Positions 42,665 through 59,038 of a DNA stretch of 64,000 nucleotides are shown piece after piece. Position numbers and translations under genes: made by a program. The notes below the pieces were generated by a model that had not been told where the DNA came from, searched no databases, and saw only the letters and a list, made by a program, of their open reading frames with translations. Position 1 is the stretch's first letter. Each line of letters starts with the position of its first letter. The stretch comes from Candidatus Limnocylindrales bacterium (GTDB lineage: Bacteria > Chloroflexota > Limnocylindria > Limnocylindrales > CSP1-4), in the NCBI GenBank assembly GCA_046707905.1, contig JBKKDM010000126.1, positions 2,405 to 66,404 of the forward strand, written 5' to 3'.

Positions 42665-44922
42665 CCGCTGTCACCGTTCCGGCGGCCGAGGCGAGCGCCC
42701 ATGGTGCCCTCCTCGAACCTGAGCCGCTGCTCCGCGTCCAGGGGCTCGTCAAGACCTTCCGGGACCCGAGCGGCCGGACCGTCCAGGCAGTCGCGGGCGT
42801 CAATCTCCAGGTCCAGGCCGGTGAGGTTCGGGCGATTGTCGGCGAGTCCGGATCGGGCAAGACGACGCTCGCTCGATGCGTTCTCCGCCTGATCGAGCCT
42901 GACGCCGGCTCGATCGAGATCGGTGGCGCCAACGTCCTCGGGATGGCTCGCGGTGCGCTGCGACGGCTTCGTCGAGATGTCCAGATCGTCTTCCAGGATC
43001 CCGCGGGATCGCTCGATCCGCGAATGCGCGTCAAGGACATCGTGCTCGAGCCGCTGCGGGTGCACGGGGACCCACTTGCCCGGGGCGCCTCCGACACGGC
43101 GCTCCAACTTCTCGACGAGGTCGGACTTTCGAGCCGGCACCTCGATCGTCGCCCGCACGAGCTCTCGGGTGGCCAGTGCCAGCGTGTGGCGATCGCGCGC
43201 GCGCTGTCGCTCAGACCGCGGTTGCTGGTGCTCGACGAGCCGACGTCGGCGCTCGACGTCTCGGTGCAGGCCCAGATCCTGAACCTGCTCGTCGAGCTGC
43301 GGGACCGTCATGGACTGACGTACGTCCTCATCTCGCACGACCTGCGCGTCGTTCGCCATCTCGCCGACTCCGTGTCGGTGATGTACCTCGGCCGGATCGT
43401 CGAGACACAGGACGCCGACACCCTGTTCGATCGGTCGGCGCACCCATATTCACGGGCGCTGCTCGCTGCGGCACCCGAGGTCGACATGACCGAGCCCCAG
43501 CCGATCCTTCTGCGCGGTGAGCCACAGAGCTCCGCCGCCGTGCCCTCGGGTTGTCGGTTCCATCCTCGCTGCTGGCTTCGCGACAAGCTCGGCGATCCCG
43601 AGATCTGCGCGCGCGTCGAGCCTCCCGCGGTCCAGCTGGGCGCGGGGTCTGCGTGCCACTTCGCCGGTGAGGTTGCGAGCCTTGCGTCGCCCGCTACAGC
43701 GCCGACATCGCCGGCCCCCGTCGAGGCGCCCGCGGTCACCCTCTCGACCTGGCAGGACCCGCCCCAGAACCGATGGTCGTACCTGCACATCGAGGAGATC
43801 TTGCCCACAGTGCCGATCTGGCGCGGTGGACTCGCCCCTTGGGGCTTCGGCGGTGCGGAGCAAGGGGATCCCACGCCGGCGACGCTGGAGACGTTGGAGT
43901 TCCAATCCCCGGAAGGCCGCGAGACGGTCCTCGAGATGCTCGACGCCACGTTCACGGACGGATTCGTCGTCGTTCACGAAGGCCGCCTCCTGCTCGAGCG
44001 GTACTCGGGCGAGATGAAGCCTGGAAGCCGGCACCTTCTGCAATCGGTTTCGAAGTCCGTCACCGCCGCGCTCGCGGGGGCGCTCGTCGGCGAGGGCCTG
44101 CTCGACCCATCCGATCTCGTCACAGACCACGTCCGTGAGCTTCGGGGATCAAGCTTTGACGGCTGCCGGGTGGAGGACCTCCTTGACATGCGCGCGGGGA
44201 CTCGCTTCTCCGAGGACTACGACGACCTCGATTCCGACATCCGGGTGTCGGAGCAGGTGTCGGGCTGGCGCCCGCGGTCGCGACGCGGGCTACCCGCCGG
44301 GCTGTATGCCTACTTCGGCACCTTGTCGAACGAGGGACCCCACGGCGGGCCGTTCGCGTACCGGTCCATCCTCACGAATGTCCTGGGATGGGTGCTCGAG
44401 CGGGCCGCCGGGCAGCCCTTCGCCGAAGCGCTCTCGACCCATGTGTGGGGTCGTCTCGGCGCCGAGTTCGACGCCTTCGTGACGGTCGACGAGCAGGGAG
44501 CCGCGGTCGAGGACGGTGGGATCGCTGTCGCCCTGCGCGATCTGGCTCGGTTCGGCCGGCTCTATCTCGATGACGGGGTCGCTGACGGCCGGCAGGTCCT
44601 GCCCGCAGACTGGGTTCGGCGACTACGCCAGCCCAATCCCGAGCTCGTGGCAGCCTTCCGTGGTCCGTTCGCGTACACGGGCATCGCGACTGCCGAGCTC
44701 CACTATCACGATCAGTGGTGGGTCCTGGATCCGCGGCGCGGAATCCACGCCGCCCTCGGGATCCACGGACAGATGGTCTACGTCCATGGTTCGAGCCGAA
44801 CCGTCGTCGTCAAGCTGTCGACGCATCCTCAGGCGCTCGATCGGCGCCTCGTGCAACGCCAACTCTCGGCGGCCCAGGCAATAGCCGGTTCGCTGGAGGG
44901 TTCGGGCGCTACGGCAGGGTAG
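42661..44922 (+). CDS. Fusion protein: peptide ABC transporter ATPase (DppF/OppF-like) joined to a beta-lactamase-fold serine hydrolase (NylB/D-aminopeptidase-like)
   Basis: A single uninterrupted 753-codon frame from ATG 42661 (ATGA overlap). The N-terminal half has GESGSGKTT, LSGGQCQRVAIA, LLVLDEPTSALD and HPYSRALL...CRFHPRC. A Pro/Ala linker (ASPATAPTSPAPVEAPA) follows, then a roughly 400-aa domain with the SxxK motif (QSVSKSV) and a GIHGQ motif. Confidence 0.85.
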   Translation: MTAVTVPAAEASAHGALLEPEPLLRVQGLVKTFRDPSGRTVQAVAGVNLQVQAGEVRAIVGESGSGKTTLARCVLRLIEPDAGSIEIGGANVLGMARGALRRLRRDVQIVFQDPAGSLDPRMRVKDIVLEPLRVHGDPLARGASDTALQLLDEVGLSSRHLDRRPHELSGGQCQRVAIARALSLRPRLLVLDEPTSALDVSVQAQILNLLVELRDRHGLTYVLISHDLRVVRHLADSVSVMYLGRIVETQDADTLFDRSAHPYSRALLAAAPEVDMTEPQPILLRGEPQSSAAVPSGCRFHPRCWLRDKLGDPEICARVEPPAVQLGAGSACHFAGEVASLASPATAPTSPAPVEAPAVTLSTWQDPPQNRWSYLHIEEILPTVPIWRGGLAPWGFGGAEQGDPTPATLETLEFQSPEGRETVLEMLDATFTDGFVVVHEGRLLLERYSGEMKPGSRHLLQSVSKSVTAALAGALVGEGLLDPSDLVTDHVRELRGSSFDGCRVEDLLDMRAGTRFSEDYDDLDSDIRVSEQVSGWRPRSRRGLPAGLYAYFGTLSNEGPHGGPFAYRSILTNVLGWVLERAAGQPFAEALSTHVWGRLGAEFDAFVTVDEQGAAVEDGGIAVALRDLARFGRLYLDDGVADGRQVLPADWVRRLRQPNPELVAAFRGPFAYTGIATAELHYHDQWWVLDPRRGIHAALGIHGQMVYVHGSSRTVVVKLSTHPQALDRRLVQRQLSAAQAIAGSLEGSGATAG

Positions 44923-44989
44923 CGGTCAAGTGACCAGGCGACCATCCATGCACGGTTCGCGGTGGACGGGTCGCTGCAGAACAACGCCA

Positions 44990-45045
44990 GGGGAGTTGGC
45001 TGGCGAGGAAGGATTCGAACCTTCAACCGCCTGATCCAGAGTCAG
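44990..45045 (-). repeat. tRNA-Gln(CUG) 3'-half fragment, copy A (att-like direct repeat)
   Basis: Minus strand reads CTGA-CTCTGGA-TCAGG CGGTT GAAGG-TTCGAAT-CCTTC CTCGCCA G CCA plus 7 nt. There is no D arm or 5' acceptor strand upstream. It is 54/56 identical to copy B. Confidence 0.7.
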
Positions 45046-45205
45046 ACGACGTGGATCGGGTTTTGCAAGCCGATCTTGAAGCTCAGCCCAGCGCCTCGCG
45101 CCGTCTGAATCCGGGAGTGCCAGGCGAACCCTCCCAGAGCGTCATGCGCACTACCGAATTCGTTGGTGAATCACGCGATTCACGGTGCGGCGCAAATGCC
45201 CCTGG

Positions 45206-45718
45206 TCACCGAGCCCGTGCCGTGACGGCGGGCGCCTCGAGCGTCGTCGCGATCTCCTTCGCCCAAGCTTCGATCTCGTCCCACGGGCGATAGTCACCTT
45301 CGGTAGCGCCGACCATCTGGACGAGCACCTTCTCTCCGAAGCCAAGCTGCTGCTTATCGAGGCGTCCACCGAAGATCCGATGCTCCCGGGCCCCGGACTG
45401 CTCCAACATCGGGGCGGCATCGACGGGCAATCCCTCCGGCTTCAGTGGAGCACCGATGGGACCCGTCGAGAACAGCCAAACCGGGAGTGCGCGCATCCGC
45501 GACGAGGTGCGCGCCACGAGATCTTTGGCGGGCTTCAGCCAATGACCGGCGTAGATCGCGGAGCCGAGGATGACGCCGTCGTAGCCGTCCAGGTGCCCGA
45601 CATCCTCAGGCCTCCGCTCATCGACCTCGATGTCGGCGCGCTTCAGCACTGTCGCGATCGCATGGGCGACCTCAGTCGTCGCGTCGTGGCGCGACGCCGC
45701 GCTTACCAAGATTCGCAT
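45206..45718 (-). CDS. Flavodoxin-domain protein (HemG-like/long-chain flavodoxin-like)
   Basis: MRILVSAASRHDATTEVAHAIATVL...YDGVILGSAIYAGHWL...LPVWLFSTGPIG. Confidence 0.75.
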   Translation of the reverse strand: MRILVSAASRHDATTEVAHAIATVLKRADIEVDERRPEDVGHLDGYDGVILGSAIYAGHWLKPAKDLVARTSSRMRALPVWLFSTGPIGAPLKPEGLPVDAAPMLEQSGAREHRIFGGRLDKQQLGFGEKVLVQMVGATEGDYRPWDEIEAWAKEIATTLEAPAVTARAR

Positions 45719-45781
45719 CGTTGAACCTCCTTCGGGTCCTCAGTGGCTACGCGCCCGGACCCGATTGCATCTCTCTCGCGT

Positions 45782-46468
45782 TCATGCCGGGCCTGCGGTT
45801 GGGTCGCCGTCGGCACGGCCGGACAGATAGCCGCCGAAGGCGATGACCCACAGGATCACCGGATAGACGATCCAGCGCTCGATCCCGCCGATGCCGAGGG
45901 CGGTCATGGGAGAGCCGTCGCCGAGGACCAAGGTCGAGGTCAAGGTGACGAGCGAGACGGCTCCCAGGAGGAGGGAGACGAAGCGGAAGGGCGCTGTGGT
46001 GACTCGAGCAGCGCTGATGGCGGCCACTCCGCCGGCCACGAAGGTGACCATCGCGAACATCTGATGCGGTGCGCCGGTGTTGCCGGGAAAGAGGCCAACG
46101 CCGAGAGCACCGATGCCGAGGATCGTCAGCGGGATGGTCACAGATCGTCGGCCGAAGGCCCGATGAACGAACCATGAGCCAGCCATGACCAGGATCCCGA
46201 TCGCCGCCATCGAAACGTCGAAGATCATGGCCGACGGCTGGAAGATGAGGCTGTTGGGTGGGCGTGTCCCGCCGAGATCGCTGATCTCGCTGCCGCCGGT
46301 CGTATACGCACTCGGGTAGAGCGCTTCGGCGGTGATGATGCCCATCAGGATGGTCACGCCGGCGATGATGAGCAGGGAGCCTCCGAGCCGGAGGTCGGTC
46401 GCCCACGTGCGACCGGCGGCGGTAACCCGCATCACGTTTGCCGCCAGGGTGCCGCTCGACGTGGTCAT
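45782..46468 (-). CDS. DUF998-family membrane protein
   Basis: 228 aa with about 6 TM segments. The pattern ISDLG...GLFPGN...H..FA is typical of DUF998. Confidence 0.65.
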   Translation of the reverse strand: MTTSSGTLAANVMRVTAAGRTWATDLRLGGSLLIIAGVTILMGIITAEALYPSAYTTGGSEISDLGGTRPPNSLIFQPSAMIFDVSMAAIGILVMAGSWFVHRAFGRRSVTIPLTILGIGALGVGLFPGNTGAPHQMFAMVTFVAGGVAAISAARVTTAPFRFVSLLLGAVSLVTLTSTLVLGDGSPMTALGIGGIERWIVYPVILWVIAFGGYLSGRADGDPTAGPA

Positions 46469-46872
46469 GCGGCGGCTCCCAGCGGGTTGGTCTGCCTTGC
46501 GGACTCGCGAGTGCCGTCTGGCCCGGCGACCAGGTACACGAGCATCGCGATGAACCCGAAGCTCAATAGGCCCAGCACCAGCAGGAGGATGAACCAGGTC
46601 TTGTCCTCAAGCCGGGAGGTGTTGAGCACGGCGCCGATCCAGGCCACGAACTGGGCGAGTGCCCCGCCGATGACGGCGAGGATGCCGACGATCGCGAGTC
46701 CGGCAATCGACCAGCTGAACGCCCACGGGTGGATCCCGACGACGTCGGGCCCACGCATGATGAAGGTGCCGTTGGCATAGGCGAGGACCAACCCTGCGCC
46801 GAGGAGCACGAGGCCGCCGACGATGGCGACGAGGCTTCCGATGAAGATCTTGGTGACGGTCGACTTGGTCAT
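46465..46872 (-). CDS. Hypothetical membrane protein (4 TM)
   Basis: Starts at ATG 46872 (MTKSTVTKIFIGSLVAIVGGLVLLG...). Its stop overlaps the start of the DUF998 gene. Confidence 0.5.
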   Translation of the reverse strand: MTKSTVTKIFIGSLVAIVGGLVLLGAGLVLAYANGTFIMRGPDVVGIHPWAFSWSIAGLAIVGILAVIGGALAQFVAWIGAVLNTSRLEDKTWFILLLVLGLLSFGFIAMLVYLVAGPDGTRESARQTNPLGAAA

Positions 46873-47059
46873 GGCGTGCCTTCCCGATGAGTGACAAGAC
46901 CCAACCCGGGTCGATGTCATCTGACACCCGCGAGATTGCGCGGCGATAGGGCCATCTGGCGGGTCATCCGAGGCGAAGTGGCCCTATGACCAGAGGGCGC
47001 GCCACTGGATGCTTCTCGTGGCGCATCAGGCGCCGCGACCGAAGCAACAAGGTGTCCTA

Positions 47060-47905
47060 ATGCGCACGATCCCGAACCGACTCGCCGCCATCGCCACAGT
47101 CCTCGCCGCCGCCGCCGCGTTGGCTGGCCTCGCCCTCACCGGGTTGTACGTCGATGCACCCAACTGGGCGCAGCAGGCGCGCGGCACAGATCTGGCGACG
47201 TTGTTCCTCGCAGTTCCTGTCCTTGGCGTCGGCCTATGGATGTCACTACGAGCCTCGTCGGCAGGCTCGTCGGCTGGACGCCTCGCGGTCGTCGCCGGGC
47301 TGCTGTACCTCGTCTACAACTACGCGATCTTTGCGTTCGCGGTGGCGATGAATCCGCTCACAGCCGTATACATCGCCATCTTCGGCCTTGCCCTGTGGAG
47401 CCTCGTGCTGACCGGGCGCGCGGCGGTCGAAGGCTCTTACGACGTTGCTGATGGTCTCAATCGGCGCGCGGCCGGGGGGCTCCTGATCGGCGTCGCCGCG
47501 ATGTTCGGGCTCTTGTGGCTCGGAGAGATCGCGGCCGCGAGCATCACGGGCGTTTTGCCGCCGGAGCTTGTCAAGGCGGGTATCTCCAGTAACCCTGTGT
47601 ACGCTCTCGATCTTGCGTTCTTCCTGCCGCTCTGCGCCATCGCCGGGATCGGCGTGCTGCGCCGGACCAGCGCCGCGGCCTTCGCCTTCCCGATGCTCAT
47701 CTGGGCCGCCCTCATGGGAGCTGGCGTAGTTGGCGGCTTCCTCCTGATGGCAGCAGCCGGCGACCAGATCGCGGCGCCAGTGGTGGTCGCCATCGGCGGT
47801 CTCAGTGTCGCGTCCTCGATCCTGGCTGCGGTCGCCGTCGTCCGACAAAGTTCAGCCACCGGGCTCGCCCGGACCTCCCCCAGTCCCGCATACCTCGAAG
47901 GATGA
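47060..47905 (+). CDS. Hypothetical polytopic membrane protein
   Basis: Starts at ATG 47060 (MRTIPNRLAAIATVLAAAAALAGL...). About 8 hydrophobic helices and no recognised family. Confidence 0.55.
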   Translation: MRTIPNRLAAIATVLAAAAALAGLALTGLYVDAPNWAQQARGTDLATLFLAVPVLGVGLWMSLRASSAGSSAGRLAVVAGLLYLVYNYAIFAFAVAMNPLTAVYIAIFGLALWSLVLTGRAAVEGSYDVADGLNRRAAGGLLIGVAAMFGLLWLGEIAAASITGVLPPELVKAGISSNPVYALDLAFFLPLCAIAGIGVLRRTSAAAFAFPMLIWAALMGAGVVGGFLLMAAAGDQIAAPVVVAIGGLSVASSILAAVAVVRQSSATGLARTSPSPAYLEG

Positions 47906-48480
47906 ACGCCATGGTTCTCGACGAACGCCTGATCGCGGACGCAACCGGGCCCTCGGGTGCGCCGCCACCCCGTCCGTTCAGCGACACTCCGCAGTTCAAG
48001 GTGATGCGCGTCGTTGTCGGCGTGTTCAACCCGCTCATTCGACGCCTGCTTGGAAGTCGATTCGCCGGGCCCATGGCCAACAACCTGATGTTGCTTCGCT
48101 TCCGCGGACGCACGAGCGGGAGCTGGCACACCACGCCGGTTGGCTACGCCCGCGAAGGAAACCAAGTCGTGGTTGTCACCTCGCCGACCTATCGGTGGTG
48201 GCGGAATGTCGTCGAGCCCGCTCCCGTACAGGTCCGTCTCGACGGCCGATGGTTCGACGCCATCGCGCGTGTGCTTCGACCGGATGACCCCGAAGACGAT
48301 CCGGCCTACAACGCCGCCGTCGCCATGCAGGTCCGCAAGCGCGGCCCACGCTTGCTTCGTGGATTCGGTATCCCGGTGACGGACGATGGTCAGGTTCCCA
48401 CCTTCGTCCGCGCCACGGCGGGAACGCGGGCCCACATCGTGCAAATGGAACTGAGCAGCGGGATCCCCAGCCCCGCGTGA
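47902..48480 (+). CDS. Deazaflavin (F420H2)-dependent nitroreductase/quinone reductase family protein (DUF385/Ddn-like)
   Basis: NPLIRRLLGSRFAGPMANNLMLLRFRGRTSGSWHTTPVGYAREGNQVVVVTSPTYRWWRNV matches the DUF385 core as remembered. Confidence 0.7.
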   Translation: MNAMVLDERLIADATGPSGAPPPRPFSDTPQFKVMRVVVGVFNPLIRRLLGSRFAGPMANNLMLLRFRGRTSGSWHTTPVGYAREGNQVVVVTSPTYRWWRNVVEPAPVQVRLDGRWFDAIARVLRPDDPEDDPAYNAAVAMQVRKRGPRLLRGFGIPVTDDGQVPTFVRATAGTRAHIVQMELSSGIPSPA

Positions 48481-49502
48481 CCGCCGAGCCCGGAGGAGAT
48501 CAAGCCATCCCAAGCGTGGAGCCAGCGTCACTCAAGGGAGGTCAGCCTCGAGGAGCCGCCGTGACCGAACCTGAAGTTCATGCTGTCGCCGGTCTCGGGC
48601 CGGTCGGACGAGCTGTGATCGACGAGCTCGTAGCCAGGGGGCTCCCGGTGCGGGCCATCGCTCGCGATTCGGTCGCGGGCCTGCCACGAGATGTCGACCT
48701 CGTTCAGGTAGACCTGACCGATGCCGCCGCCGTGGGCCGCGCCTTGGCCGGCGCGGCTGTCGTGTATCACACCGCCAGTGGCCCCTACGACCGCTGGCCA
48801 GAGCTCCTGCCGCCGCTGATGCGCAGCATTCTCGTTGCGGCGGCGGCCACGAACGCCCGCGTCGTCTACGCCGACAATCTCTACGCCTTCGGACCGGTCG
48901 ACGCATCGCTGACTGAAGACCTCGAGTCTCGCGCCGAGGGCCCGAATGGTCGCGTCCGGGCGACGCTGGCCGGTGAGCTCATGAGGGCTCACGCGGCAGG
49001 CAAGGTCCGGGCGACGATCGGGCGCGCATCCGACTATTACGGCCCTCGGGGTCGCCAATCGATGGCCGGCGAGCGACTTTTCGTGCCCGCCCTGGCCGGC
49101 AAGCCGACGCAGGTACTCGGGGATCCTGACCTACCCCATACCTTCACGTTTCTTGGTGACTACGCTCGTGGCCTGGTCACCCTCGGCACGCGCGACCAAG
49201 CTCTCGGAGAGGTGTGGCACCTGCCCAGCGCGGAAACCATAACGACGCGCGCGTTCATAAACCTGGTCTTCGAGGTAGCGGGGCAGCAGCCCAAGCTCCG
49301 TGTGCTGCCGGGATCCCTCCTGACGGTCCTCGCTCTGTTCAATCCGACGCTGCGCGCGGTCCGGGAGCAGCGTTACCAGCGCGAGGCGCCGTGGATCGTC
49401 GACCACACGAAGTTCGCCCGGGCCTTCGGAGCACAAACGACGCCCCACCGGGCGGCGATCGCGGCGACCCTCGACTGGTACGGCGGAGCGGACCGGTCAT
49501 GA
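48477..49502 (+). CDS. NAD-dependent epimerase/dehydratase-family (extended SDR) protein
   Basis: Rossmann motif VAGLGPVGRAVIDELVARG. About 310-340 aa. The start is uncertain; an in-frame GTG near 48561 is also possible. Confidence 0.75.
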   Translation: MTAEPGGDQAIPSVEPASLKGGQPRGAAVTEPEVHAVAGLGPVGRAVIDELVARGLPVRAIARDSVAGLPRDVDLVQVDLTDAAAVGRALAGAAVVYHTASGPYDRWPELLPPLMRSILVAAAATNARVVYADNLYAFGPVDASLTEDLESRAEGPNGRVRATLAGELMRAHAAGKVRATIGRASDYYGPRGRQSMAGERLFVPALAGKPTQVLGDPDLPHTFTFLGDYARGLVTLGTRDQALGEVWHLPSAETITTRAFINLVFEVAGQQPKLRVLPGSLLTVLALFNPTLRAVREQRYQREAPWIVDHTKFARAFGAQTTPHRAAIAATLDWYGGADRS

Positions 49503-49616
49503 TTTGGACGTTGATGGGCGGGGCCGACGGCGATCCGACCCTTGGCGATCGAAGCCCGGGCGGAGGAGCCTCGAGTGGTGCCTGACGTTCACCCTGGCCC
49601 ATACCCAACTGGGGCC

Positions 49617-50216
49617 ATGACGCGGGCTGGTTTCGCCCTCGCGGCGGGTGCACTGGCCGGCCCGGCGCTCGTCGGATTCATCCTCGCGGCCGCTGCCAGT
49701 ACTCCAGGCTACAGCCACCTCTCGGAGACCGTCAGTCAGCTCGGAGCGCTGGGCCGCCCGCACCCGGAGATCATGAGCGTCGGCTTTGGTGTCTTTGGGG
49801 CCCTCGTCTGCCTGTTCGCCGCAGGCGTCCGCGGCGCACTCCCGGAAGGTCGGGGTCGAACTTCGGCTTGGCTTGGGCTCCTGATCTTCGGAGCTGCGGT
49901 AGCGCTCACGGGGATCTTCCAGGATCACGACCTCCGTGATGGCGTCGCCCCCTCAACCGAAGGGGATCTGCACACCCTCTTCGCCACGGTTGCCGTGCTC
50001 GGCCTGTTGATCGCGCTGCTTGGGACGACACGAGCATCCAACCTACCGAAGCCCCTCGGGCGCGCTTCACTGGTCGCCTTCGTCGCCGTGCTCGGGCTGG
50101 GTGCGGCCTCCGTCGTGAGTCCCGGCGACATCGTGGGGCTCGTGCAGCGTGCGCTCTATGCCGTGACGGTGATCTGGATGGCCGCCGTATCGATCGGGTT
50201 GCTCCGCCGGAGCTAG
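49617..50216 (+). CDS. DUF998-family membrane protein (second copy in this block)
   Basis: Starts at ATG 49617 (MTRAGFALAAGALAGPALVGFILAAAAS..YSHLSETVSQLG...), about 6 TM segments. Confidence 0.6.
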   Translation: MTRAGFALAAGALAGPALVGFILAAAASTPGYSHLSETVSQLGALGRPHPEIMSVGFGVFGALVCLFAAGVRGALPEGRGRTSAWLGLLIFGAAVALTGIFQDHDLRDGVAPSTEGDLHTLFATVAVLGLLIALLGTTRASNLPKPLGRASLVAFVAVLGLGAASVVSPGDIVGLVQRALYAVTVIWMAAVSIGLLRRS

Positions 50217-50528
50217 GCGGCACTTACCCTCAATGAGGTCGGCGAGTGACGTCCCCCCATGGCGGTCCTTCGTCTCCCGGGGCATTCGTCGGCTTCTGGT
50301 TCGAAGCGTCCTCCAGCGACCTCCTGAACTTGGCGTACCGTCGAGGAACAGCACGGGACTGCGCCTTGCGGTCCGTCCACGTACATGTCAAGTGTTGGCC
50401 CATCCGGCGTGCCGGTTCGTGAACTGAAGATCCATTCGTCGGCCTCGCATAGTCGTCCTCGAGCCCGAGCCTGATCCGGACCGCTGCACTAATGTGGAAG
50501 CCAGAGCGACGAACCAGGAGATGCCGAG

Positions 50529-51071
50529 ATGGGATTCCTCGACCGCAATCGACGCGAACGGGCGCCCGCGAACGACGAACGGGCCATCGAGCGCTATCGC
50601 TACATGCTGTCCACCGCACCGCCCGAGGACATCGAGCGGGCGCACGAAGAAGCGTTCGCCCGCCTGAGCCCGGAGCAGCGACGTGCCGTGCTCGACCAGC
50701 TCGCAAAGCACGTCCCGCCCGGCGAGGCGCGTGGCGACGATCCGGCGTCGCTGGCCCGAACTGCGACCCGGGCGGAGGTGCGCCAGCCCGGCACGATCGA
50801 CCGGGCATTCGGTGGCGGGTTCGCCGCGCCGAGCCTCGGCTCGTACTTTCTCACAGTACTGGCCGCGAGCTTCATCGGCAGTGCCGTCGCGCAGTCGTTC
50901 TTCGCGAACGATGCAGGCGAGGGCGGCGACGCGGGAGCGGATGGCGACGGTGCCGCGGAATCAGTCGAAGGAGGGGACACCGCCGATGCAGATGCGGGGG
51001 CGAGCGGTGACTTTGGGGGTGACGGCGAATTCGGCGGCGATATGGGCGGCGGGGACTTCGGCGGCTTCTGA
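50529..51071 (+). CDS. Hypothetical protein with one TM helix and an acidic Gly/Asp-rich tail
   Basis: 180 aa: MGFLDRNRRERAPANDERAIERYRYML..., TM helix YFLTVLAASFIGSAVAQSFF, tail GGDAGADGDGAAES...GGDFGGF. Confidence 0.5.
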   Translation: MGFLDRNRRERAPANDERAIERYRYMLSTAPPEDIERAHEEAFARLSPEQRRAVLDQLAKHVPPGEARGDDPASLARTATRAEVRQPGTIDRAFGGGFAAPSLGSYFLTVLAASFIGSAVAQSFFANDAGEGGDAGADGDGAAESVEGGDTADADAGASGDFGGDGEFGGDMGGGDFGGF

Positions 51072-51176
51072 CCCGTCCGTGGTCGAGGCGAAGGCGGGTC
51101 GGCGAAGGGAAGTAGGGGGCGGTCGTTCAGCTCTGTCCGCAGCCGGTCGAGGGAAGTTCTCGCAGGCGGTCGAAGC

Positions 51177-52271
51177 TCAGGCGCGCCCAGCGATGATGAC
51201 TGGGATCGAGACGGCGGATCGGAGAGAACCAGGCGCCATCCCGCGGATCCGCTCGGCGAGGCTCGGCTGCGCGCCGTCTGGTGGGAGGACCACGATTGCC
51301 CCTCCGAAGCGGTGTGCGGCGTCGGCCAACCCGTCGGCTCCGGCCTTGGTGGGGTACCAGGCGCCCGCCTCGACGCTGGACGAGCGTGCCGCGTCGAGGA
51401 AGTCGGCGACGGAATTGTGGCCCTCGCGTCTGGCGGTGTCGGCATCGAATAGGCGCTCCGGTGATGGCCGGCCGGCGTCATCCCCGCGGAGGTCCGAATA
51501 CGGGCTGGTGAACCCCTCCGCGCTCCGATCGACGAAGACGACCCGCCGCCTCTCGCGCCGGGCCATGCCGAGGGCCGCGACGACCGCGTCGCGATCGGCA
51601 CCGCGTCCTACGGCCACGATGATCGCGCCATCGCCGGCATCCGCCGGCACCGAGGGTGCTTGTCCAGCGGCATTGACGCTTGCCGCGATCCGTTGGGCGA
51701 CCTCCGACAACGGTCGCGGCTTGCGAGGCGTGGGCGGAGCACTGAGCGGACGCAGCGTGGCGAGCAGCAGGGCGACGACATCGGGATCATCCGACACGAA
51801 TCCGACGAACCGCTTCCCCGGCGTGGCGGCGCCGCCGACGCCGAAGCGGGCTTTGTCGCCGAGCTCGAACGACACGAAGGCCAGTGGCTCCGGCCGATCG
51901 GAGACCAGGAACCACTGGGCGTCAAGCTGGCTGGTGTCGTTGCGGGCCTCGCGGTAGTCAAGCGCGGCCAGGCGGGGATCGGCGGGTCGCGGCCCGATCG
52001 CCCAAGCCGTGATCTCGGTGTTCGCCGCGAGAAGGTCGACGTAGCGGTCGACCTCCAGGAGGAGCTTGTCGGCCTTCTGGAACCCGACGAACAGACGTCC
52101 GCCGCGCGCGGCTCGCTCGATCTGCCGGGTCGTCCTCAGCATGGCCCGCGGCTCATAGGTGAACCTCGTCGCGTCGGGGGCGCGGCCGAGCGCCTCCGCG
52201 AGGCGCCGGCCGATCTCGAAGACTCCGGCGTCCCCGGAGCCCGCGGGGTAGGTCCAGTCCATGGCGGCCAT
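51177..52271 (-). CDS. Hypothetical two-domain protein (N-terminal DICT-like sensory domain, C-terminal USP/adenine-nucleotide-alpha-hydrolase-like domain)
   Basis: Starts at ATG 52271 (MAAMDWTYPAG...). The N-terminal half (RQIERAARGGRLFVGFQKADKLL...AQWFLVSD...FVSFEL) resembles DICT. The C-terminal half (AIIVAVGRGADRDAVV...GGAIVVLPP...IPVIIAG) resembles USP. Both calls are tentative. Confidence 0.45.
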   Translation of the reverse strand: MAAMDWTYPAGSGDAGVFEIGRRLAEALGRAPDATRFTYEPRAMLRTTRQIERAARGGRLFVGFQKADKLLLEVDRYVDLLAANTEITAWAIGPRPADPRLAALDYREARNDTSQLDAQWFLVSDRPEPLAFVSFELGDKARFGVGGAATPGKRFVGFVSDDPDVVALLLATLRPLSAPPTPRKPRPLSEVAQRIAASVNAAGQAPSVPADAGDGAIIVAVGRGADRDAVVAALGMARRERRRVVFVDRSAEGFTSPYSDLRGDDAGRPSPERLFDADTARREGHNSVADFLDAARSSSVEAGAWYPTKAGADGLADAAHRFGGAIVVLPPDGAQPSLAERIRGMAPGSLRSAVSIPVIIAGRA

Positions 52272-52388
52272 CCGTCTCCAACTTCCTTTGAGGCCAAGGA
52301 GCGCCGCGCACCGGCGGACACCCTTCGCCACGAGCTACATCAGGCGACCCGTGGCGGACGGGCCCGGCGACACCCGCAGCATGGCACA

Positions 52389-52468
52389 CTTGTATATAGT
52401 TTGTCTAATCTCAGGAAGGCTTGACCGCCTCGGTCCAATTCCCATAACCTGTACAAACAGTGAACAAG
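52389..52468. promoter_or_regulatory. AT-rich divergent promoter region with an imperfect inverted repeat
   Basis: CTTGTATATAGTTTGT (52389-52404) and ACAAACAGTGAACAAG (52453-52468) match 12/16 as an inverted repeat. They lie in a locally AT-rich gap between divergent genes. Confidence 0.3.
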
Positions 52469-52485
52469 CGGCGCCCACAACCTCG

Positions 52486-54786
52486 ATGGTCAGCGTGATG
52501 TCGATCTCCATGTCGACCGCTGTTCGCCCCCGGCTGGCTTCCATCGCACCGTCAATGTCCACCCTGGTGGGACTCCAGCGGATCGCCGATGCCCGCTCCA
52601 TCCTGGAGGCAATCCGGGCGACCCCACTGGCCGTGGCCGAGATGGAGGCCGCCGTCGACTTCGAGACCGCGGCACCCTCCATCATTCGAGAGCTGGTCAC
52701 CGCCGTCCGCGACGATGCCGATTCCGTGACTGGCATCGGTGCTGTTCATGTCCTGGCCGCCGTCCCTGGTGGCCGGGCTGATCGCGCGATCGCCGAACTG
52801 CTGCGACGGGGTCCCGGTCCGGTACCCGCGCATGCGGCATGGGCCAGCGCCGGCCGAGCGCCGGCGGCCGAGCTGCTCGAGCCCCTGGTCGACCTCCTGA
52901 TCACGGGTGGCCTGGCCGGCATGCACGCGCAGGCGGTGCTGGCTGAATGGGCCCGGCGGGCGCCAAGGATGGTCGCGGCCACCCTGCGAATGGGGCTTGC
53001 CAGAACGACCCGTGGGGACGGCCGCCGCGCCATCATCGAGACACTCGGACTCGTTCCCGATCTGGGGGTGCTTCCGGACCTCGCCGTCGTGGCCGCCGAT
53101 GGCAGGGAGGCGGACGTCGTCCGCGTCGCGGCGATCGCCGCACTCGGGGACGAACTTCGTGCCCCGATGCCGCGAGCGATCGCGGCCCTGGCCCGCGGTG
53201 ACAACCGGGTCGCAGACGCAGTGCGCCTCGCCGAATCCGATCGCGCCCTGCGACGTCTCGACTTCGTGGGTGGTCGGTCGTCACTCCGGAGACAGTCAGC
53301 GGCCGCGGCGGCACCCGGAGGCGTGCGCATGGCCCAGATTCATCTCGGCGCGGTGCTCGATCCCGACCTCCGCCAGTCCGGCGTCGGCGATACCGGTGGC
53401 ATAGCCACGCTGCTGGTACGACTCGGCGTTGCCCTCGCGCGCACGCCGGGAATCGCAGAAGTCATCACGATCGGCCGTGGCACCGTGCGCAACGCCCTTG
53501 ACGCTTCTCAGCAACCCGAAGGCGGCCCCCGATACGTGCCTGTGGCCCTCGAACCCGAAGCCGGTACGGGATTCAGCGACTCCTGGCCGGCCCGTATCTC
53601 GACGGAGCGCGAATTGCGGCGATTATTCCGTGCCCACGGCCGGCCGGACATCATCCACCTCCGGATGGCGGATGTCGGCACCCTGGCCGCAGCGAATGCC
53701 GCCACGACCCTCGGGATCCCCACCGTGTTCAGCCTCGCACCGGACCCACACGGGGTGATTGCCAGCCGCGAAGCGTCGGGCGATCTCGACCGAAGGAGCT
53801 TCGGCATCGAGGACTCCTCACTCAACTTGTGGTACCGCGTGCGGCTGGTGGAGCGCCTGGCACGGCAAGCCGCGCACGTGGCGCTTTTTCCGCGGGAGCG
53901 ACTGATCGAACAGCTGCGCGAGCTCGTCGGCATCGATGTCAATGCCTCGCCGGGTTCGTTCACGGTCGTACCGGAAGGAATCGACATTGCGCAGATCAGG
54001 CGCGCAGTCGCCGCTGGCGCGGGCTTGCCGGCCATACGACGACCCGGCCCCGCGAGTCCACGCGGCGCTGGTGCAGGCGGACCTGGTAGCGCGGCGGCGA
54101 CTGGCGCGCTGGCCGCCCTCCTCGATCGTGTCTCGGCGCTGCCGCCGACCCGCCACGGGCTGCCGATCGTGCTGTCCGTCGGACGGTTGAACGAGCTGAA
54201 AGGCATGGCGCGGTTGGCAGAGGCGTTCGCATCGGATGCAGCGTTGCGGGCCAGGGCGAACCTGGTCATCGTCGGTGGGGATCTTGTCGATCCATCCGCG
54301 GCTGAAGCGAGCGAGCTGGCCCGGATCAGGGCGGCAATGGCTGCGCAACCGGACGTGGCAACAGCGCTCATCCTGCTGGGACACCGGCCCAACGGCGAGG
54401 TTGCCCAGCTGCTCGCGGCGGTCCGGCATGGCGTGAGAACCCTGATCGGGGCGGGCGGAGCCTATGCCTGCGCGAGTCGCAAGGAGGAGTTCGGCCTTGC
54501 GATCGTGGAGGCCCTGGCCGCCGGATTGCCGGTCGTTGCTCCGCTGGCGGGCGGGCCGGCCACGTATGTCGAGGAGGGCCGTACTGGGATGCTCGTGAAC
54601 ACGGACGACACCAACGCCCTGGCCGGCGGCGTGGCGCGTGCCCTCGACCTCGCTGATCAGCCCGGTCGGGCCGAGTACGCCGCCGCATCGATGGCTTCGA
54701 GGTATGACATCTCCGGAATGGCGGAGGCCATGTCGTCGATCTATCGCCGTGTGGCGATCGGTTCGCGCGACTCGCTCGCTTCGTGA
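52486..54786 (+). CDS. HEAT-repeat domain fused to a sucrose-phosphate-synthase-like GT4 glycosyltransferase
   Basis: ATG 52486 is in frame with ORF 52261. The N-terminal roughly 300 aa is Ala/Leu-rich with HEAT-like repeats (RRAIIETLGLVPD, VVRVAAIAALGDEL). The GT-B domain follows (GDTGGIATLLVRLG..., HLRMADVGTLAA...PTVFSLAPDPH..., C-terminal EEFGLAIVEALAAGLPVVA). Confidence 0.7.
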   Translation: MVSVMSISMSTAVRPRLASIAPSMSTLVGLQRIADARSILEAIRATPLAVAEMEAAVDFETAAPSIIRELVTAVRDDADSVTGIGAVHVLAAVPGGRADRAIAELLRRGPGPVPAHAAWASAGRAPAAELLEPLVDLLITGGLAGMHAQAVLAEWARRAPRMVAATLRMGLARTTRGDGRRAIIETLGLVPDLGVLPDLAVVAADGREADVVRVAAIAALGDELRAPMPRAIAALARGDNRVADAVRLAESDRALRRLDFVGGRSSLRRQSAAAAAPGGVRMAQIHLGAVLDPDLRQSGVGDTGGIATLLVRLGVALARTPGIAEVITIGRGTVRNALDASQQPEGGPRYVPVALEPEAGTGFSDSWPARISTERELRRLFRAHGRPDIIHLRMADVGTLAAANAATTLGIPTVFSLAPDPHGVIASREASGDLDRRSFGIEDSSLNLWYRVRLVERLARQAAHVALFPRERLIEQLRELVGIDVNASPGSFTVVPEGIDIAQIRRAVAAGAGLPAIRRPGPASPRGAGAGGPGSAAATGALAALLDRVSALPPTRHGLPIVLSVGRLNELKGMARLAEAFASDAALRARANLVIVGGDLVDPSAAEASELARIRAAMAAQPDVATALILLGHRPNGEVAQLLAAVRHGVRTLIGAGGAYACASRKEEFGLAIVEALAAGLPVVAPLAGGPATYVEEGRTGMLVNTDDTNALAGGVARALDLADQPGRAEYAAASMASRYDISGMAEAMSSIYRRVAIGSRDSLAS

Positions 54787-56126
54787 CCCTCCTGGTCGTC
54801 AGCCCGGACTACGCGTCGCACGCGGTCCCGCTGATCACAATTGCCGAGGCCTGGCGAGATGCCGGTGAGCGGGTCGTCGTGGCCAGTGGACCTGCGGTTG
54901 CGCCGCTGGTGGCGCAGGCGGGCATGCAATCCGCCCGACTGGTGCTGGGCCGTGGCTCGAATGCCGGCGTCGCCCGTCCCGAGCAGCAGCCCGCTGGCGA
55001 GGACGACAACCTGCGAGCGTTCTTCGAGGCCACCCGGCGAGGGATGGTCCCAACGCTTCGCTACCAGGCGCAGGCGCGAGCCCACGACCTGCTCTGGGAA
55101 CCCGTCGAGACCGCACGTCAGACCATCGAGATCGTCGAACAGGTCCAACCGGACGCAATCCTAGTGGACCACCTCGCGTTCGGGGCCACCCTCGGTCTCC
55201 GAGCGATCGGAGCCCGATACGCTGACGTCGTCCTTGGCCATCCACGGCAGCTCCCCGTGGCCGGCGAGACCTACGGTGTCCCCGGCTCCTGGCCATCCAT
55301 CCTTGCGCCTCGCGCCGAGGAGCTGGAGGATCTTCGTTCGCTTGCACGGAGTGTCGCCGTCAGGTTCACCGACGCCTACAACGACGCGCTGCGAACGGTT
55401 GCGGCGGACTCGCCAGCAGTCGCGGACGCGTTCGCCGCTCACGGATCGCTGGTCCTGCTCAACTACCCGCAGCTGCTCCACGACCCTCGACGGACCGTGG
55501 ACCTCCCGCGCGCCCATGCCTTCCTGGGAGCGATGCCCCGCCGGGAACAGCCGTCGGCCGATGTCGATGCGTGGCTCGAACGCGATCCTGATCGACCGAT
55601 CGTGCTCGTCTCGCTCGGGACGTTCCTGTCGGCTCGCGCCGACGTGCTCGCCACCATCGCCCGTGGCCTGCGACAGCTCGACGTTCGCGTGGCGCTGGCC
55701 ACCGGGTCCACCGACCCGAGCCGGTTGGGCCCCCTCCCATCAGAGTGGCTCGTCAGCCCGTACGTGCCCCAGGTGAACATCCTCTCTCGAGCCAGCGTGC
55801 TGGTAACGCACGCCGGCAACAACAGCGTCACCGAGGCCCTCGCCCAAGGAGTCCCGATGTTCGCGCTTCCGTTCTCGACCGATCAGTTCGACGGTGCGGT
55901 GGCGCTCGAGTCCACCGGCCTCGGCCTGGCGGCGGATCCCAATCGAGTGACTCCGCTCGAGGTGGCGGAAACGGTTCGACGCTTGATCGAGACCAGCCAC
56001 CCAGCGTTGGACAGCCTGGCGTCAGAGCTTGCCGCGCAGCCCGGTTCGGCGATCGCAAGGGCAGCCATCGGCGAATGGCTGGTGCCGCAAGCGCTGCCCA
56101 GCAAGCGTGGCGCGGAGGCCGCGTAA
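54783..56126 (+). CDS. GT1-family (MGT/UDP-glycosyltransferase-like) glycosyltransferase
   Basis: The GTG start overlaps the upstream stop. The C-terminal nucleotide-sugar motif is VTHAGNNSVTEALAQGVPMFALPFSTDQF. Confidence 0.8.
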   Translation: MTLLVVSPDYASHAVPLITIAEAWRDAGERVVVASGPAVAPLVAQAGMQSARLVLGRGSNAGVARPEQQPAGEDDNLRAFFEATRRGMVPTLRYQAQARAHDLLWEPVETARQTIEIVEQVQPDAILVDHLAFGATLGLRAIGARYADVVLGHPRQLPVAGETYGVPGSWPSILAPRAEELEDLRSLARSVAVRFTDAYNDALRTVAADSPAVADAFAAHGSLVLLNYPQLLHDPRRTVDLPRAHAFLGAMPRREQPSADVDAWLERDPDRPIVLVSLGTFLSARADVLATIARGLRQLDVRVALATGSTDPSRLGPLPSEWLVSPYVPQVNILSRASVLVTHAGNNSVTEALAQGVPMFALPFSTDQFDGAVALESTGLGLAADPNRVTPLEVAETVRRLIETSHPALDSLASELAAQPGSAIARAAIGEWLVPQALPSKRGAEAA

Positions 56127-56231
56127 GTCACGCGAGCAGGCGATTCTGCGTGGCGTTGACGAACCGGACCGCCCCCGGAGCTCGACTGCCGACACGTGCC
56201 GACCGGCGCAGTGAGTAGACGGGACGGGGTC

Positions 56232-56287
56232 GGGGAGTTGGCTGGCGAGGAAGGATTCGAACCTTCAATCCCCTGATCCAGAGTCAG
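56232..56287 (-). repeat. tRNA-Gln(CUG) 3'-half fragment, copy B (att-like direct repeat)
   Basis: Same structure as copy A. The only differences are two variable-loop positions (GGATT versus CGGTT). No D arm or 5' acceptor strand follows. Confidence 0.7.
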
Positions 56288-56355
56288 CGTGGCACAAGCG
56301 CGGTGCTTCCGCGAGTAGGCTACCGAGCGAACGAGGCCAGTTAGGGGATGCACCG

Positions 56356-56586
56356 ATGACCCTGCAACCGAACTTCTGCGAAGCCGCGACCTGTCAAAGG
56401 AAGCTCGAGCCGGATGACGTCGTCGTGCGGATCGTCGAGAGCGTGATGGTCAAGGAACAAGCGGGCGATCTTCCGGTACAGGGGCCGGCGGCGATCTACC
56501 ACGAGGAACATGCGCCGGATCCCGGCGCCAACGGTTACGAGGAATTTCGGGGGCCTCTCCGTGACATCCGGCGCAACGCAACGTAG
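56356..56586 (+). CDS. Hypothetical small protein
   Basis: 76-aa ORF with no recognisable family and weak coding signal. Confidence 0.3.
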   Translation: MTLQPNFCEAATCQRKLEPDDVVVRIVESVMVKEQAGDLPVQGPAAIYHEEHAPDPGANGYEEFRGPLRDIRRNAT

Positions 56587-56606
56587 GTTCGGTTGCGGAG
56601 TGGGCG

Positions 56607-56825
56607 CTAGCCGCTCTGCGCCCTCGCAGCGAGGACGCCCTGACAGACTGGACACCGCTCGTTGGCGGGGACCAGCCGCACCTCGCGGTGCTCTAGGTCG
56701 GTGTCCCCGTTGAATGTCCGATTGCATGCGCAGAGCAGCAAGCCTTGGACTCCATCGCCAGCCGGCATGTGCCACTGACCGAGCAAGCCCTCCGCCTTTG
56801 CGCGAACCCAAGGTGCATCTTCCAT
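56607..56825 (-). CDS. Hypothetical small Cys-rich protein (possible zinc ribbon)
   Basis: From ATG 56825: MEDAPWVRAKAEG...LLCACNRTF...ERCPVCQGVL. The longer ORF-track extension is antisense to a more protein-like + strand ORF. Confidence 0.3.
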   Translation of the reverse strand: MEDAPWVRAKAEGLLGQWHMPAGDGVQGLLLCACNRTFNGDTDLEHREVRLVPANERCPVCQGVLAARAQSG

Positions 56826-56900
56826 GGTTCGCAGCGTACCTATATGCGCCGCCCGCAGATGGCCGTGATTCCGTAACCTCGTGGCCCGGAGCATCAGCGC

Positions 56901-57089
56901 TTGGCTGATGACATCGACGACGCCATCGAAACGGCCGCCCAACGCGCGCGGGAGGCCGCGGAGGAGGTGAGTGAGACGCCTGTTACCTCGCCAGAAATCG
57001 TTGCGGAGGCACGCATCGTCGAGCGTCGGGTCGAAGACCTCGACGTGCTGGCGAATCAGGCGGTGGAGGACGCCGAGCCCGAGGTATAG
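56901..57089 (+). CDS. Hypothetical small acidic protein
   Basis: 62 aa (MADDIDDAIETAAQRAREAAEEVSE...), predicted helical, followed by the palindrome CTCGCCTAGGCGAG at 57113-57126. Confidence 0.3.
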   Translation: MADDIDDAIETAAQRAREAAEEVSETPVTSPEIVAEARIVERRVEDLDVLANQAVEDAEPEV

Positions 57090-57709
57090 CGGTCCACGTC
57101 TCATCCGCAGGGCTCGCCTAGGCGAGTCGGACCCAGGGTGGACCACGCGCCTAGGCCGGAGCACTTGGATGGAGAGGACCCCAGCGCCTCCATCGCCGGG
57201 GGAACGACGAGCCCCCAGAGCCCCCTCCGATGCTCAGAACGATCGCAGGCCACCCCGGTTATGCCTGCCAGTTTCGAGGTGGTTCCGCAGCGCACCAGAA
57301 GGCGTGGCGCGGTGGCCGGAAGACTGCTTGCGGTGACGTCTCGCGGCCGGCAATGGGACGGGTCCGAGGGCGTGAATCGGTGCCGAGGGGCACATTCGGC
57401 GGATTCAGACATGCGGACGGCATGCAATCGCGATCCGGCGCGAGGGAAGGCGCCCCGCTCTTGTGTCCCTGTTGAGAACGACCAATGCAAGGACCGCCGG
57501 GTACGTTCGCGGGCAAGCTCCGCGCTCTTTCCATTGGACCGGGCCTGGCGCGGAGCTCCTTCCCCAACACAGTATGCAGACGTCGCCGCCGCTGGCGATG
57601 GAAGACCGCGAGGTTGCTCTTAGAACCGGTCTTGGAGAGCGGGACCAAGCGCACAATGTGGCCCGGCGCTCACCGTTGGGCGTTTGTCGGAAGGGGCCGG
57701 GAGGGCACC

Positions 57710-58183
57710 ATGGCCCGCAACGCCATCATCGCTTTGGTTGCTGTGCTGTCCGTTGGTATCGCAGCATGTAGTTCCCCCGCAGCACCGCTCGCGCCGGGCC
57801 CCGGAGCAACGCTGGCGCCGGTCCCCGCAGCCACGCTCCGGCCGGCCAATGCCCCCACCCCGCCGGTCGTCACGCCCAAGCCGGTCAAGCAGCTCACTCG
57901 CGCTCAGGAGAATGCCATCGAGGCGGCCGAAGACTATCTCGACTATTCGGCCTTCTCTCGCTCTGGGCTGATCGACCAGTTGGTATACGAGGACTACAGC
58001 AAGGCCGTTGCCACCTTTGCGGTCGACTCGCTGGACGTGAACTGGAAAGAACAAGCGTTCCTGTCAGCGCAGGCATATCTCGACTATTCCTCGTTCTCGC
58101 TCAAGGGTCTGATCGACCAGCTGAGGTACGAGGGCTTCACCAAGGCACAGGCCGAATACGGCGCTGAGAAGGCCTACAACTAG
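57710..58183 (+). CDS. Ltp-family lipoprotein (two Ltp repeats)
   Basis: Starts at ATG 57710 with lipobox LSVGIAAC. Two repeats are present: AIEAAEDYLDYSAFSRSGLIDQLVYEDYSKAVATFAV and AFLSAQAYLDYSSFSLKGLIDQLRYEGFTKAQAEYGA. Confidence 0.75.
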   Translation: MARNAIIALVAVLSVGIAACSSPAAPLAPGPGATLAPVPAATLRPANAPTPPVVTPKPVKQLTRAQENAIEAAEDYLDYSAFSRSGLIDQLVYEDYSKAVATFAVDSLDVNWKEQAFLSAQAYLDYSSFSLKGLIDQLRYEGFTKAQAEYGAEKAYN

Positions 58184-58564
58184 CGGGCCATGTACCGCCC
58201 AATGACCCGCTCGAGCTCGTCGCGATCGAGGGTCCGCCCCAGGTTCTCCACCCCCAAGACTCCGCCCTACGACGTAGGCCAAGCGGAGTCGCCGACGTAG
58301 TTGGTCCATCCGCCCACCGTCCGGTCGCGGGACGCCGCGTAGCCTGTCGTCGAGGTCGCGCAACGCAGCCGTCTCGTCTTCGCCGGTCCCCGTTGCGGTC
58401 TGTGGTGCCTTGCCACGTCCGGGGTGCGGACCGCGGGCGGTCACGGACCACGCTCCACGGTATCCGTCGGCGCGTAGGACTCCGGGGTCAACCGAGGGCT
58501 GCCCGACACATCAGCGGGCCGGGAGGGCCTCGTGGACGGCGGCCCACGCCTCCTCCCGCGTCAT
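58180..58564 (-). pseudogene. Hypothetical gene interrupted by an in-frame TGA (58511-58513) and a probable 1-nt frameshift near 58265-58267
   Basis: ATG 58564 overlaps the upstream stop (ATGA). The frame reads MTREEAWAAVHEALPAR, then TGA, then continues CVGQPSVDPGVL...ARGPHPGRGKAPQTATGTGEDETAALRDLDDRLRGVPRPDG...RRRLRLAYVV. A 1-nt shift in a G-run then gives GGVLGVENLGRTLDRDELERVIGRYMAR-stop at 58180. The unshifted frame runs as junk into the convergent Ltp gene. Confidence 0.5.
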
Positions 58565-59013
58565 CCCCCGTCGGGCCGCCGAGACCAGGTCAACTGGAGC
58601 GCGTCTCCGTTCCGCTCGGTGGAAAGCACAAGGCCGCGACGCTCGGCGATCGCCGAAAGGAGCACCTCGTTCGAGCGGTCGATATCTTCCACCGTCGTCC
58701 CCCATTGCTCGCACCACTCCGGGTCGGGGCCGGTAAGCGTCAGCACCGCCCTCGAATCGTCGCCGCTGACGTCAACGACGGTCATATCCGCCGTCGTCGC
58801 AAAGTTGCGACCCTCGAGGCGCGCGACGTCGAGAGCGGATCCATCGCCAATCTCGTCCCAGGTGGGCGCGAATGCTTGGCCGACGAATGAAGCCCAGCCA
58901 TCCAAACCGCCCGTCTGCTGCTTCGCCCAGAGCAGGGTCACGTGCCAGATCGCCGACTGGTTGCCCTTCGCCGCTTCCAGGAGTTCGTCCGACGAGTAGT
59001 TGAGGTGGGCCAT
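58561..59013 (-). CDS. Hypothetical protein (150 aa)
   Basis: Clean ORF (MAHLNYSSDELLEAAKGNQSAIWHVTLLWAKQ...) with protein-like composition and no recognised family. Confidence 0.5.
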   Translation of the reverse strand: MAHLNYSSDELLEAAKGNQSAIWHVTLLWAKQQTGGLDGWASFVGQAFAPTWDEIGDGSALDVARLEGRNFATTADMTVVDVSGDDSRAVLTLTGPDPEWCEQWGTTVEDIDRSNEVLLSAIAERRGLVLSTERNGDALQLTWSRRPDGG

Positions 59014-59038
59014 CGATGTCCCTTTCGAAACTTCCGGG

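Follow-up and report, generated by a model that had tools for sequence, protein, structure and literature searches.

What does it mean that a block of bacterial chromosome is bracketed by two direct copies of the 3' half of a tRNA gene, with neither an integrase nor an intact tRNA between or beside them? The question is posed by a window of 64,000 nucleotides (nt) from the genome of a Candidatus Limnocylindrales bacterium, an uncultured, high-GC member of the Chloroflexota (contig JBKKDM010000126.1, positions 2,405 to 66,404), in which such repeats, here called copies A and B and derived from tRNA-Gln(CUG), enclose 11.2 kb of DNA. The layout, namely chromosome with a dpp operon, copy A, island 1, copy B, island 2 with an integrase, and a third copy (C) beyond the window, very probably records the serial integration of two islands into a minus-strand tRNA-Gln(CUG) gene, and the window holds the distal two-thirds of the array. 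Structurally this is of an ordinary and well-known type, the accretion of an integrase-bearing island beside a decayed island resembling a cis-mobilizable element (CIME); the order of events and any present-day mobility of the blocks are inferred. The features on which the argument turns are as follows, with coordinates counted from the first letter of the window and continued to its right; labels beginning with L denote sequences other than the window.

36924-44922, plus strand: chromosomal flank, a LysR regulator and a dpp-type oligopeptide ABC transporter operon.
44990-45045, minus strand: copy A, tRNA-Gln(CUG) positions 27-75 plus 7 nt; attR-type outermost junction of island 1 distal arm, core and chromosome.
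45046-56231, no strand: island 1, 11.2 kb, without an integrase (Pfam, tblastn).
45046-45139, no strand: conserved distal end of island 1, a candidate recombination arm of 94 nt shared with the end of a block in L052.
51166-56087, no strand: DICT-like/GT4/UDPGT cargo module, 80-85% nt identity to L052 6434-11306 and 82% amino acid (aa) identity to L053.
56232-56287, minus strand: copy B, a hybrid attachment site (att) junction of island 2 distal arm, core and island 1 proximal end.
56288-67399 (56288-64000 in the window), no strand: island 2, 11.1 kb, continued beyond the window on the overlapping contig L001 (Pfam, PHROGs).
56340-56350, plus strand: 11-mer GTTAGGGGATG in the distal arm of island 2.
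66335-67258, minus strand: tyrosine integrase on L001, 308 aa, 141 nt from copy C (PF00589).

The repeats themselves have the positions, direct orientation and identity (54/56) that a first-pass annotation, made from the letters of the window, had assigned to them, and they lie 11,242 nt apart from start to start. When up to three mismatches are allowed, the 25-nt core of the repeat occurs at two sites in the window, which are A and B, and at none in 100 dinucleotide-preserving shuffles. When the initial 37 nt of the repeat were searched against GTDB species representatives, 11 loci came back, all of them in metagenome-assembled genomes of Chloroflexota and mostly labelled Limnocylindria or Limnocylindrales; at ten of the 11, ARAGORN called an intact 75-nt tRNA-Gln(CUG) whose 3' end is the repeat query. 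The consensus of these relatives' genes reads, element by element, TGGCGAG TG GCCA AACGGTA AGGC A CCTGA CTCTGGA TCAGG GGATT GAAGG TTCGAAT CCTTC CTCGCCA G CCA. Measured against it, the direct repeats correspond to the 3' portion of a genuine tRNA gene: copy B reproduces positions 27-75 plus ACTCCCC exactly, and copy A departs from it at 2 of 56 positions, both in the variable loop (CGGTT for GGATT). The first-pass parsing of the repeat (anticodon CUG, T arm, U1-A72, discriminator G, CCA and 7 extra nt) was therefore correct, as was the claim that neither copy can function as a gene: ARAGORN found no tRNA genes in the window and an Rfam scan of 44000-64000 (E<=1) gave no tRNA match. Together with the start of both copies at tRNA position 27, these scans rule out a complete tRNA hidden at A or B. 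A dispersed repeat or miniature inverted-repeat transposable element, the former raised by the same annotation as an outcome that would undo its reading, is likewise ruled out, the core being confined to A and B in the window and to tRNA-Gln loci in the 11 GTDB genomes. The ACTCCCC that follows the encoded CCA is kept in the genomes of ten relatives (L003-L012) and is also present in all three copies here; it is either part of the att identity segment or a conserved 3' trailer. Among these relatives the tRNA-Gln gene lies in two different conserved neighborhoods, one of them of a mod-operon type, and L004 carries two different tRNA-Gln(CUG) genes on the same strand, 2.2 kb apart (1419-1493 and 3676-3750), with variable loops AGATC and GGATT.

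The sequence to the right of the window supplies the integrase. Logan contig L001 (11,172 nt, sample SRR31159422), found by way of the window's hydrolase-cyclase protein, agrees fully (100% identity) with window positions 56258-64000 in its initial 7,743 nt, and so extends the sequence to 67,429. Its left end falls inside copy B, of which it includes the last 30 nt, and its right end is GGGGAGTTGGCTGGCGAGGAAGGATTCGAA, which equals the opening 30 nt of the repeat and marks the start of copy C at 67400. The integrase encoded on it scores 83.3 bits against PF00589 (cut-off 27.1) and has all of the catalytic residues (R157, K184, H251, R254, W277, and Y286), placing it among the tyrosine recombinases. 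It aligns with structures of XerD, XerC-like proteins and XerA; its N-terminal part holds SAM-like domains, with the core-binding domain from residue 17, and domain analysis recognized no N-terminal arm-binding domain. Exactly this protein is on record on a 72,268-nt NCBI contig, as are the window's own proteins, from which it follows that the source contig runs on rightward and holds the integrase. A tyrosine integrase at the tRNA-proximal end is thus a property of island 2 and not of island 1. Of the two explanations that the first-pass annotation had put forward, a tandem array whose integrase and intact tRNA-Gln lie to the right of the window is borne out, as far as the sequence reaches, by this full-length gene and by the start of the third copy, and an old immobilized island is also a fair description of the A-B block itself. 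The lack of an integrase and, very probably, that of an intact tRNA, which it had taken as odd, come from the window's edge and from the ordinary decay of the older island and are not a biological peculiarity.

Relatives of the integrase establish that this family targets tRNA-Gln(CUG). On the 1.35-Mb contig L051 the integrase is 61% identical; 111 nt separate its gene from the end of an intact tRNA-Gln(CUG) ahead of it, and at a distance of 7.2 kb downstream tRNA positions 28-75 are repeated, with one GTTAGGGGATG beside this distal repeat. L054 (3.1 Mb, integrase 60% identical) has a tRNA ending 113 nt before the integrase gene and a distal tRNA repeat 4.9 kb off, which gives an element of 4.9 kb; a second tRNA called there by ARAGORN has a mismatched acceptor stem. 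In L050, whose integrase is 87% identical, a single core (tRNA positions 28-80) lies between homologues of the distal and the integrase-proximal ends of island 2, with no tRNA 5' half beside it, and this junction has the attP form, which would stem from either a circular form or a tandem copy. The closest relative of the integrase is 93% identical, and more distant ones (40-49% identity) are found beside tRNA-Gly or tRNA-Pro genes. Given the geometry common to L051 and L054, and because the cell needs such a tRNA, it is highly probable that copy C belongs to an intact tRNA-Gln. As to L050 itself, positions 1-6118, from another sample, include an AAA_25/DnaB-like gene beside the attP-form junction, and island 2 carries no such gene. 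The k=31 contig reads straight through the 53-nt core, which suggests that this junction is the dominant one in its sample; it might represent a free circular, possibly replicating form.

The boundaries of the repeat also bear on how recombination may proceed. Eight independent fragments show the repeat running from the 5' strand of the anticodon stem, at tRNA positions 26-33, through the CCA. Because the repeats begin there, and in keeping with what is generally known of tRNA-targeting integrases, they suggest strand exchange in the anticodon loop, with the stem arms as core-type sites. Near these cores stands the 11-mer GTTAGGGGATG, which occurs three times in 67.4 kb (56340, 67319, and 67372) and never in 200 shuffles. 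Of these, the second and third are located outside the window, in the interval from the integrase gene to copy C; all three fall within ~100 nt of the att cores of island 2, and the same layout of one plus two around the core is seen in L050. These 11-mers are probably binding sites of the integrase or of an accessory protein.

Island 1 is of a different character. Its genes encode, according to Pfam, a flavodoxin, two DUF998 proteins, an F420H2-quinone-reductase-like protein, an epimerase, a DICT-like protein, and GT4 and MGT/UDPGT glycosyltransferases. As the first-pass annotation had stated, it holds no mobility gene: neither Pfam nor tblastn with the integrase of island 2 found an integrase or a remnant of one, and neither Pfam nor tblastn found a relaxase or transfer gene. 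An integrase pseudogene is ruled out, the best tblastn match outside island 2 having E=1.8. Flanked by att sites and carrying neither integration nor transfer genes, island 1 is CIME-like in its makeup. Comparable blocks are present in other genomes. On L052, a 2.36-Mb contig of another Limnocylindria genome, an intact tRNA-Gln(CUG) has a truncated integrase beside it and is accompanied by three more 3'-half fragments, and the second block, which is bounded by tRNA-Gln fragments and has no integrase, bears the same DICT-like/GT4/UDPGT module as island 1. There the correspondence reaches to the end of the block, as window positions 44990-45139 match L052 6156-6304, comprising a tRNA-Gln fragment and the block end, at 90% over 150 nt. 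The two blocks differ between their ends: the window has ~6 kb extra between the conserved end and the module, and in L052 the module is separated from the next fragment by a photolyase remnant and MarR, MFS and F420H2-reductase genes which the window does not have. In L003, two fragments come after tRNA-Gln and enclose no integrase, and in L053 the module lies beside a different intact tRNA-Gln, with no fragments, and is followed by a photolyase gene. The arrays of 3' halves downstream of the intact gene extend over 395-20763 in L052 and 3259-7876 in L003, with two or three fragments each and most blocks without an integrase. Integrase-less, att-bounded blocks are a recurrent feature of the Limnocylindria tRNA-Gln locus. 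A tblastx hint that the flanks downstream of the relatives' tRNA resemble the proximal end of island 1 was lost on nucleotide alignment.

To the left of copy A lies the chromosomal flank. Synteny by tblastx with L048 and L049 (66-67% aa identity) covers 36924-44913 and stops at copy A; past the end of synteny these two relatives have MarR and other genes, with no tRNA and nothing that matches the window or its extension. The composition changes as well. By a proxy for third-position GC (guanine plus cytosine) content, taken in 900-nt windows as the largest GC value among the three codon phases, the core stands at 0.856, the dpp operon at 0.81, island 1 at 0.769 and island 2 at 0.755, and the two islands differ from the core with Mann-Whitney p = 2e-15 and 6e-13, respectively. 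Composition across the boundaries, a check proposed in the first-pass annotation, thus set the islands apart by the GC proxy but hardly by tetranucleotides, for which the correlation to the core dropped only slightly. These profiles agree with acquisition and are not decisive alone.

By what is established of tRNA-targeting tyrosine integrases, each integration into a tRNA gene would supply a new 3' part of the tRNA from attP and displace the previous 3' part outward. Applied to this locus, copy A would be the oldest displaced 3' half, bordering the dpp chromosome, copy B would be the hybrid junction of both islands, and copy C should complete a working tRNA 141 nt from the integrase gene. Island 1 would then be an older, CIME-like block of glycosyltransferase and redox cargo, whose own integrase was lost or never present. 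Any mobility left to it would come through its neighbor's integrase, for example by recombination between A and C that would excise the composite. Island 2 is the younger element, as far as the order of events can be read from the junctions.

Several observations weigh against such a history. Under this model copy A should be the 3' half that the host had originally, yet it alone among the copies deviates from the relatives' tRNA consensus, which could reflect a host-specific variable loop or decay after displacement. We found no relative close enough to reveal an empty attB beside the dpp operon; in the nearest (66-67% aa identity), tRNA-Gln is located on a different contig. The shift in composition is modest, with the dpp operon itself intermediate (0.81). 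L001 covers just the first 30 nt of copy C, and any tRNA 5' half would lie beyond the contig end. The Logan contigs of SRR31159422 all break inside the repeats, L047 for instance ending 30 nt into copy A, and the block order dpp-A-island 1-B-island 2-C rests on the assembly of the window. Finally, the tRNA-proximal end of island 1 has neither an integrase remnant nor a motif of the island 2 type, for which reason we infer, rather than observe, that island 1 was once an autonomous element.

Three other histories deserve to be weighed against serial integration. In one, the A-B block is native chromosome, copy A was left behind by an unrelated old event or derives from a tRNA paralogue that decayed, and island 2 alone was inserted. 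This would be in keeping with the lack of mobility genes in island 1, with a composition close to that of the adjacent dpp operon, and with the module's occurrence in L053 without flanking fragments, beside its own intact tRNA-Gln and ahead of the photolyase gene. However, the dpp operon's nearest relatives are syntenic with the window only up to A, and what adjoins copy A on its 5' side is not a tRNA 5' half; it is the 94-nt segment conserved with the end of the att-bounded block in L052, as is expected of an element arm. Moreover, by the geometry of attL and attR, a simple integration at A cannot leave a 3' half joined to the region upstream of the tRNA. We therefore regard a native block as very improbable. 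Somewhat more room, although not much, must be left for a single arrival, in which islands 1 and 2 had been joined in an earlier host and were integrated once as a 22.4-kb unit, with B an internal relic. Composite transfer of a CIME together with an integrative and conjugative element (ICE) is documented in other bacteria (PMC5704250), and in L052, too, an integrase-bearing island adjoins the tRNA and a block bearing the glycosyltransferase module comes next. Yet the window and L052 have unrelated integrase islands, the integrases being 31% identical and the cargo different, and their arrays do not agree in how many blocks they contain or in what these carry, so that independent serial events at a hot spot fit better and a one-step arrival seems improbable.

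The remaining alternative concerns the assembly, since the 56-nt repeat, which is also present in the tRNA-Gln genes of co-occurring relatives, could have joined blocks from different strains or genomes. Every k=31 Logan contig of the sample ends 30 nt inside the repeat; because an assembly at k=31 breaks at repeats, these ends, at k-1, neither confirm nor contradict the joins. The joins are nevertheless mirrored elsewhere: the junction of copy A and the end of island 1 recurs at 90% identity on the 2.36-Mb contig of L052, where an array of the same design is contained in a megabase contig, and an integrase beside a repeat copy is matched in L051 and L054. A repeat of 56 nt is also shorter than the k-mers or reads that usually underlie a contig of 72 kb. 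A chimera is, accordingly, extremely improbable, and serial integration of two islands remains the reading that we adopt.

The cargo of island 2, by Pfam and PHROGs, includes an Ltp-type superinfection-exclusion lipoprotein, a fusion of an alpha/beta-hydrolase to a class III nucleotide cyclase, a PD40 beta-propeller protein and an extracytoplasmic function (ECF) sigma factor; beyond 64000 these are followed by small helix-turn-helix and zinc-ribbon regulators, among which a 132-aa zinc-ribbon/helix-turn-helix protein is adjacent to the integrase, then by the tyrosine integrase itself and copy C. Among its called genes, Pfam and PHROGs found none for replication, for a relaxase, coupling protein or type IV secretion system, or for phage structure or packaging (one open reading frame of 76 aa was covered by Pfam only), and we assign island 2 neither to the ICEs, nor to the integrative and mobilizable elements, nor to the prophages. 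A prophage is ruled out further by IMG/VR, in which neither the att core nor relatives of the integrase were found, and by the phage-like PHROGs matches, which are morons and regulators only. A defense island is rejected too, PADLOC giving just a weak PycC match to the cyclase domain. Two details of the cargo may be recorded. Window positions 60374-61923, which comprise the hydrolase-cyclase gene and ~85 nt on each side, share 96% nucleotide identity with a stretch of JGI contig L055 that sits among miaA, miaB, rny, recX, and recA, with unrelated flanks and the 10-mer CGCAGTTCAG bracketing it; in sequence this looks like a recent exchange of a single gene. In the Ltp-like lipoprotein gene, a 71-nt direct repeat (57935-58005 and 58076-58146, 77% identical) corresponds to its two Ltp domains.

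Elsewhere in the window, the last gene of the dpp operon (42661-44922) encodes a DppF-like ABC ATPase with a C-terminal beta-lactamase-fold domain (753 aa), an architecture common to more than 30 proteins of Limnocylindria and Chloroflexota. Near the left end, 3136-5256 and 5294-7420 are adjacent AA_permease_2 paralogues of 706 and 708 aa, with 74-83% nt identity over several stretches, and constitute a tandem gene duplication.

For the annotation of this genome, which is where its value mainly lies, the analysis marks at least 22 kb of the contig (45046-67399) as horizontally acquired. It also defines a family of small Xer-like integrases specific for tRNA-Gln(CUG) in an uncultured class of soil and freshwater Chloroflexota, and identifies tRNA-Gln(CUG) as a recurrent hot spot for the pile-up and decay of islands. 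The current view of integrative elements is not challenged, and att sites without an integrase can simply reflect the edge of the window under study. A more ambitious proposal, which we hold to be speculative and rather unlikely, is that the tRNA-Gln(CUG) locus acts as a standing capture platform, in which att-bounded cargo lacking an integrase, for instance the glycosyltransferase island and its conserved 94-nt end, would be mobilizable by the resident Xer-like integrase island, single genes of the cargo would be exchanged with chromosomes, and the att architecture would depend on an accessory protein in a manner not yet described. A platform is suggested by the integrase-less blocks in second position in two genomes; single-gene exchange is hinted at by the 1.55-kb hydrolase-cyclase segment, which is 96% identical in an unrelated context; and dependence on an accessory protein might explain an integrase that has no arm-binding domain and yet is accompanied by conserved one-plus-two 11-mers.

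How, then, does the locus compare with known systems? In the anticodon-loop class that Williams reportedly set out in 2002, att identity is said to extend from the anticodon stem-loop to the 3' end of the tRNA, pSAM2-type elements of actinomycetes in tRNA-Pro being an example. The array described here differs from that class in that its integrase has no recognizable arm-binding domain and in that the scans of island 2 detected no genes for replication or transfer, the L050 element having an AAA_25/DnaB-like gene. It resembles the class in the extent of the repeat, from the 5' strand of the anticodon stem through the CCA, and in the placement of the integrase gene, 111-141 nt downstream of the tRNA or repeat copy and in the same orientation. 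In the history of its blocks, the array matches the published scheme of CIME-ICE accretion, in which, over three steps, an element integrates, decays to a CIME and is joined by another that integrates in turn (PMC5704250). The differences are that neither island here was found to carry conjugation or mobilization genes and that the target is tRNA-Gln in Chloroflexota; what is shared is an integrase-bearing island by the target, then an integrase-less block with att repeats at both ends, and three direct copies of the 3' end of the target. Within the same phylum, the ssrA islands of Dehalococcoides (McMurdie et al. 2011, PMC3146451) also form multiple tandem islands downstream of a small-RNA gene, bounded by direct repeats of its 3' end; 15 of them have no integration module and have been discussed as possible cis-mobilizable elements or fixed remnants. 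Their target is tmRNA, into which a large serine recombinase inserts at the T-loop with a 20-bp repeat, whereas the target here is tRNA-Gln(CUG), the repeat comprises 49 nt of tRNA from the anticodon stem plus 7 nt, and the enzyme is a Xer-like tyrosine recombinase of 308 aa.

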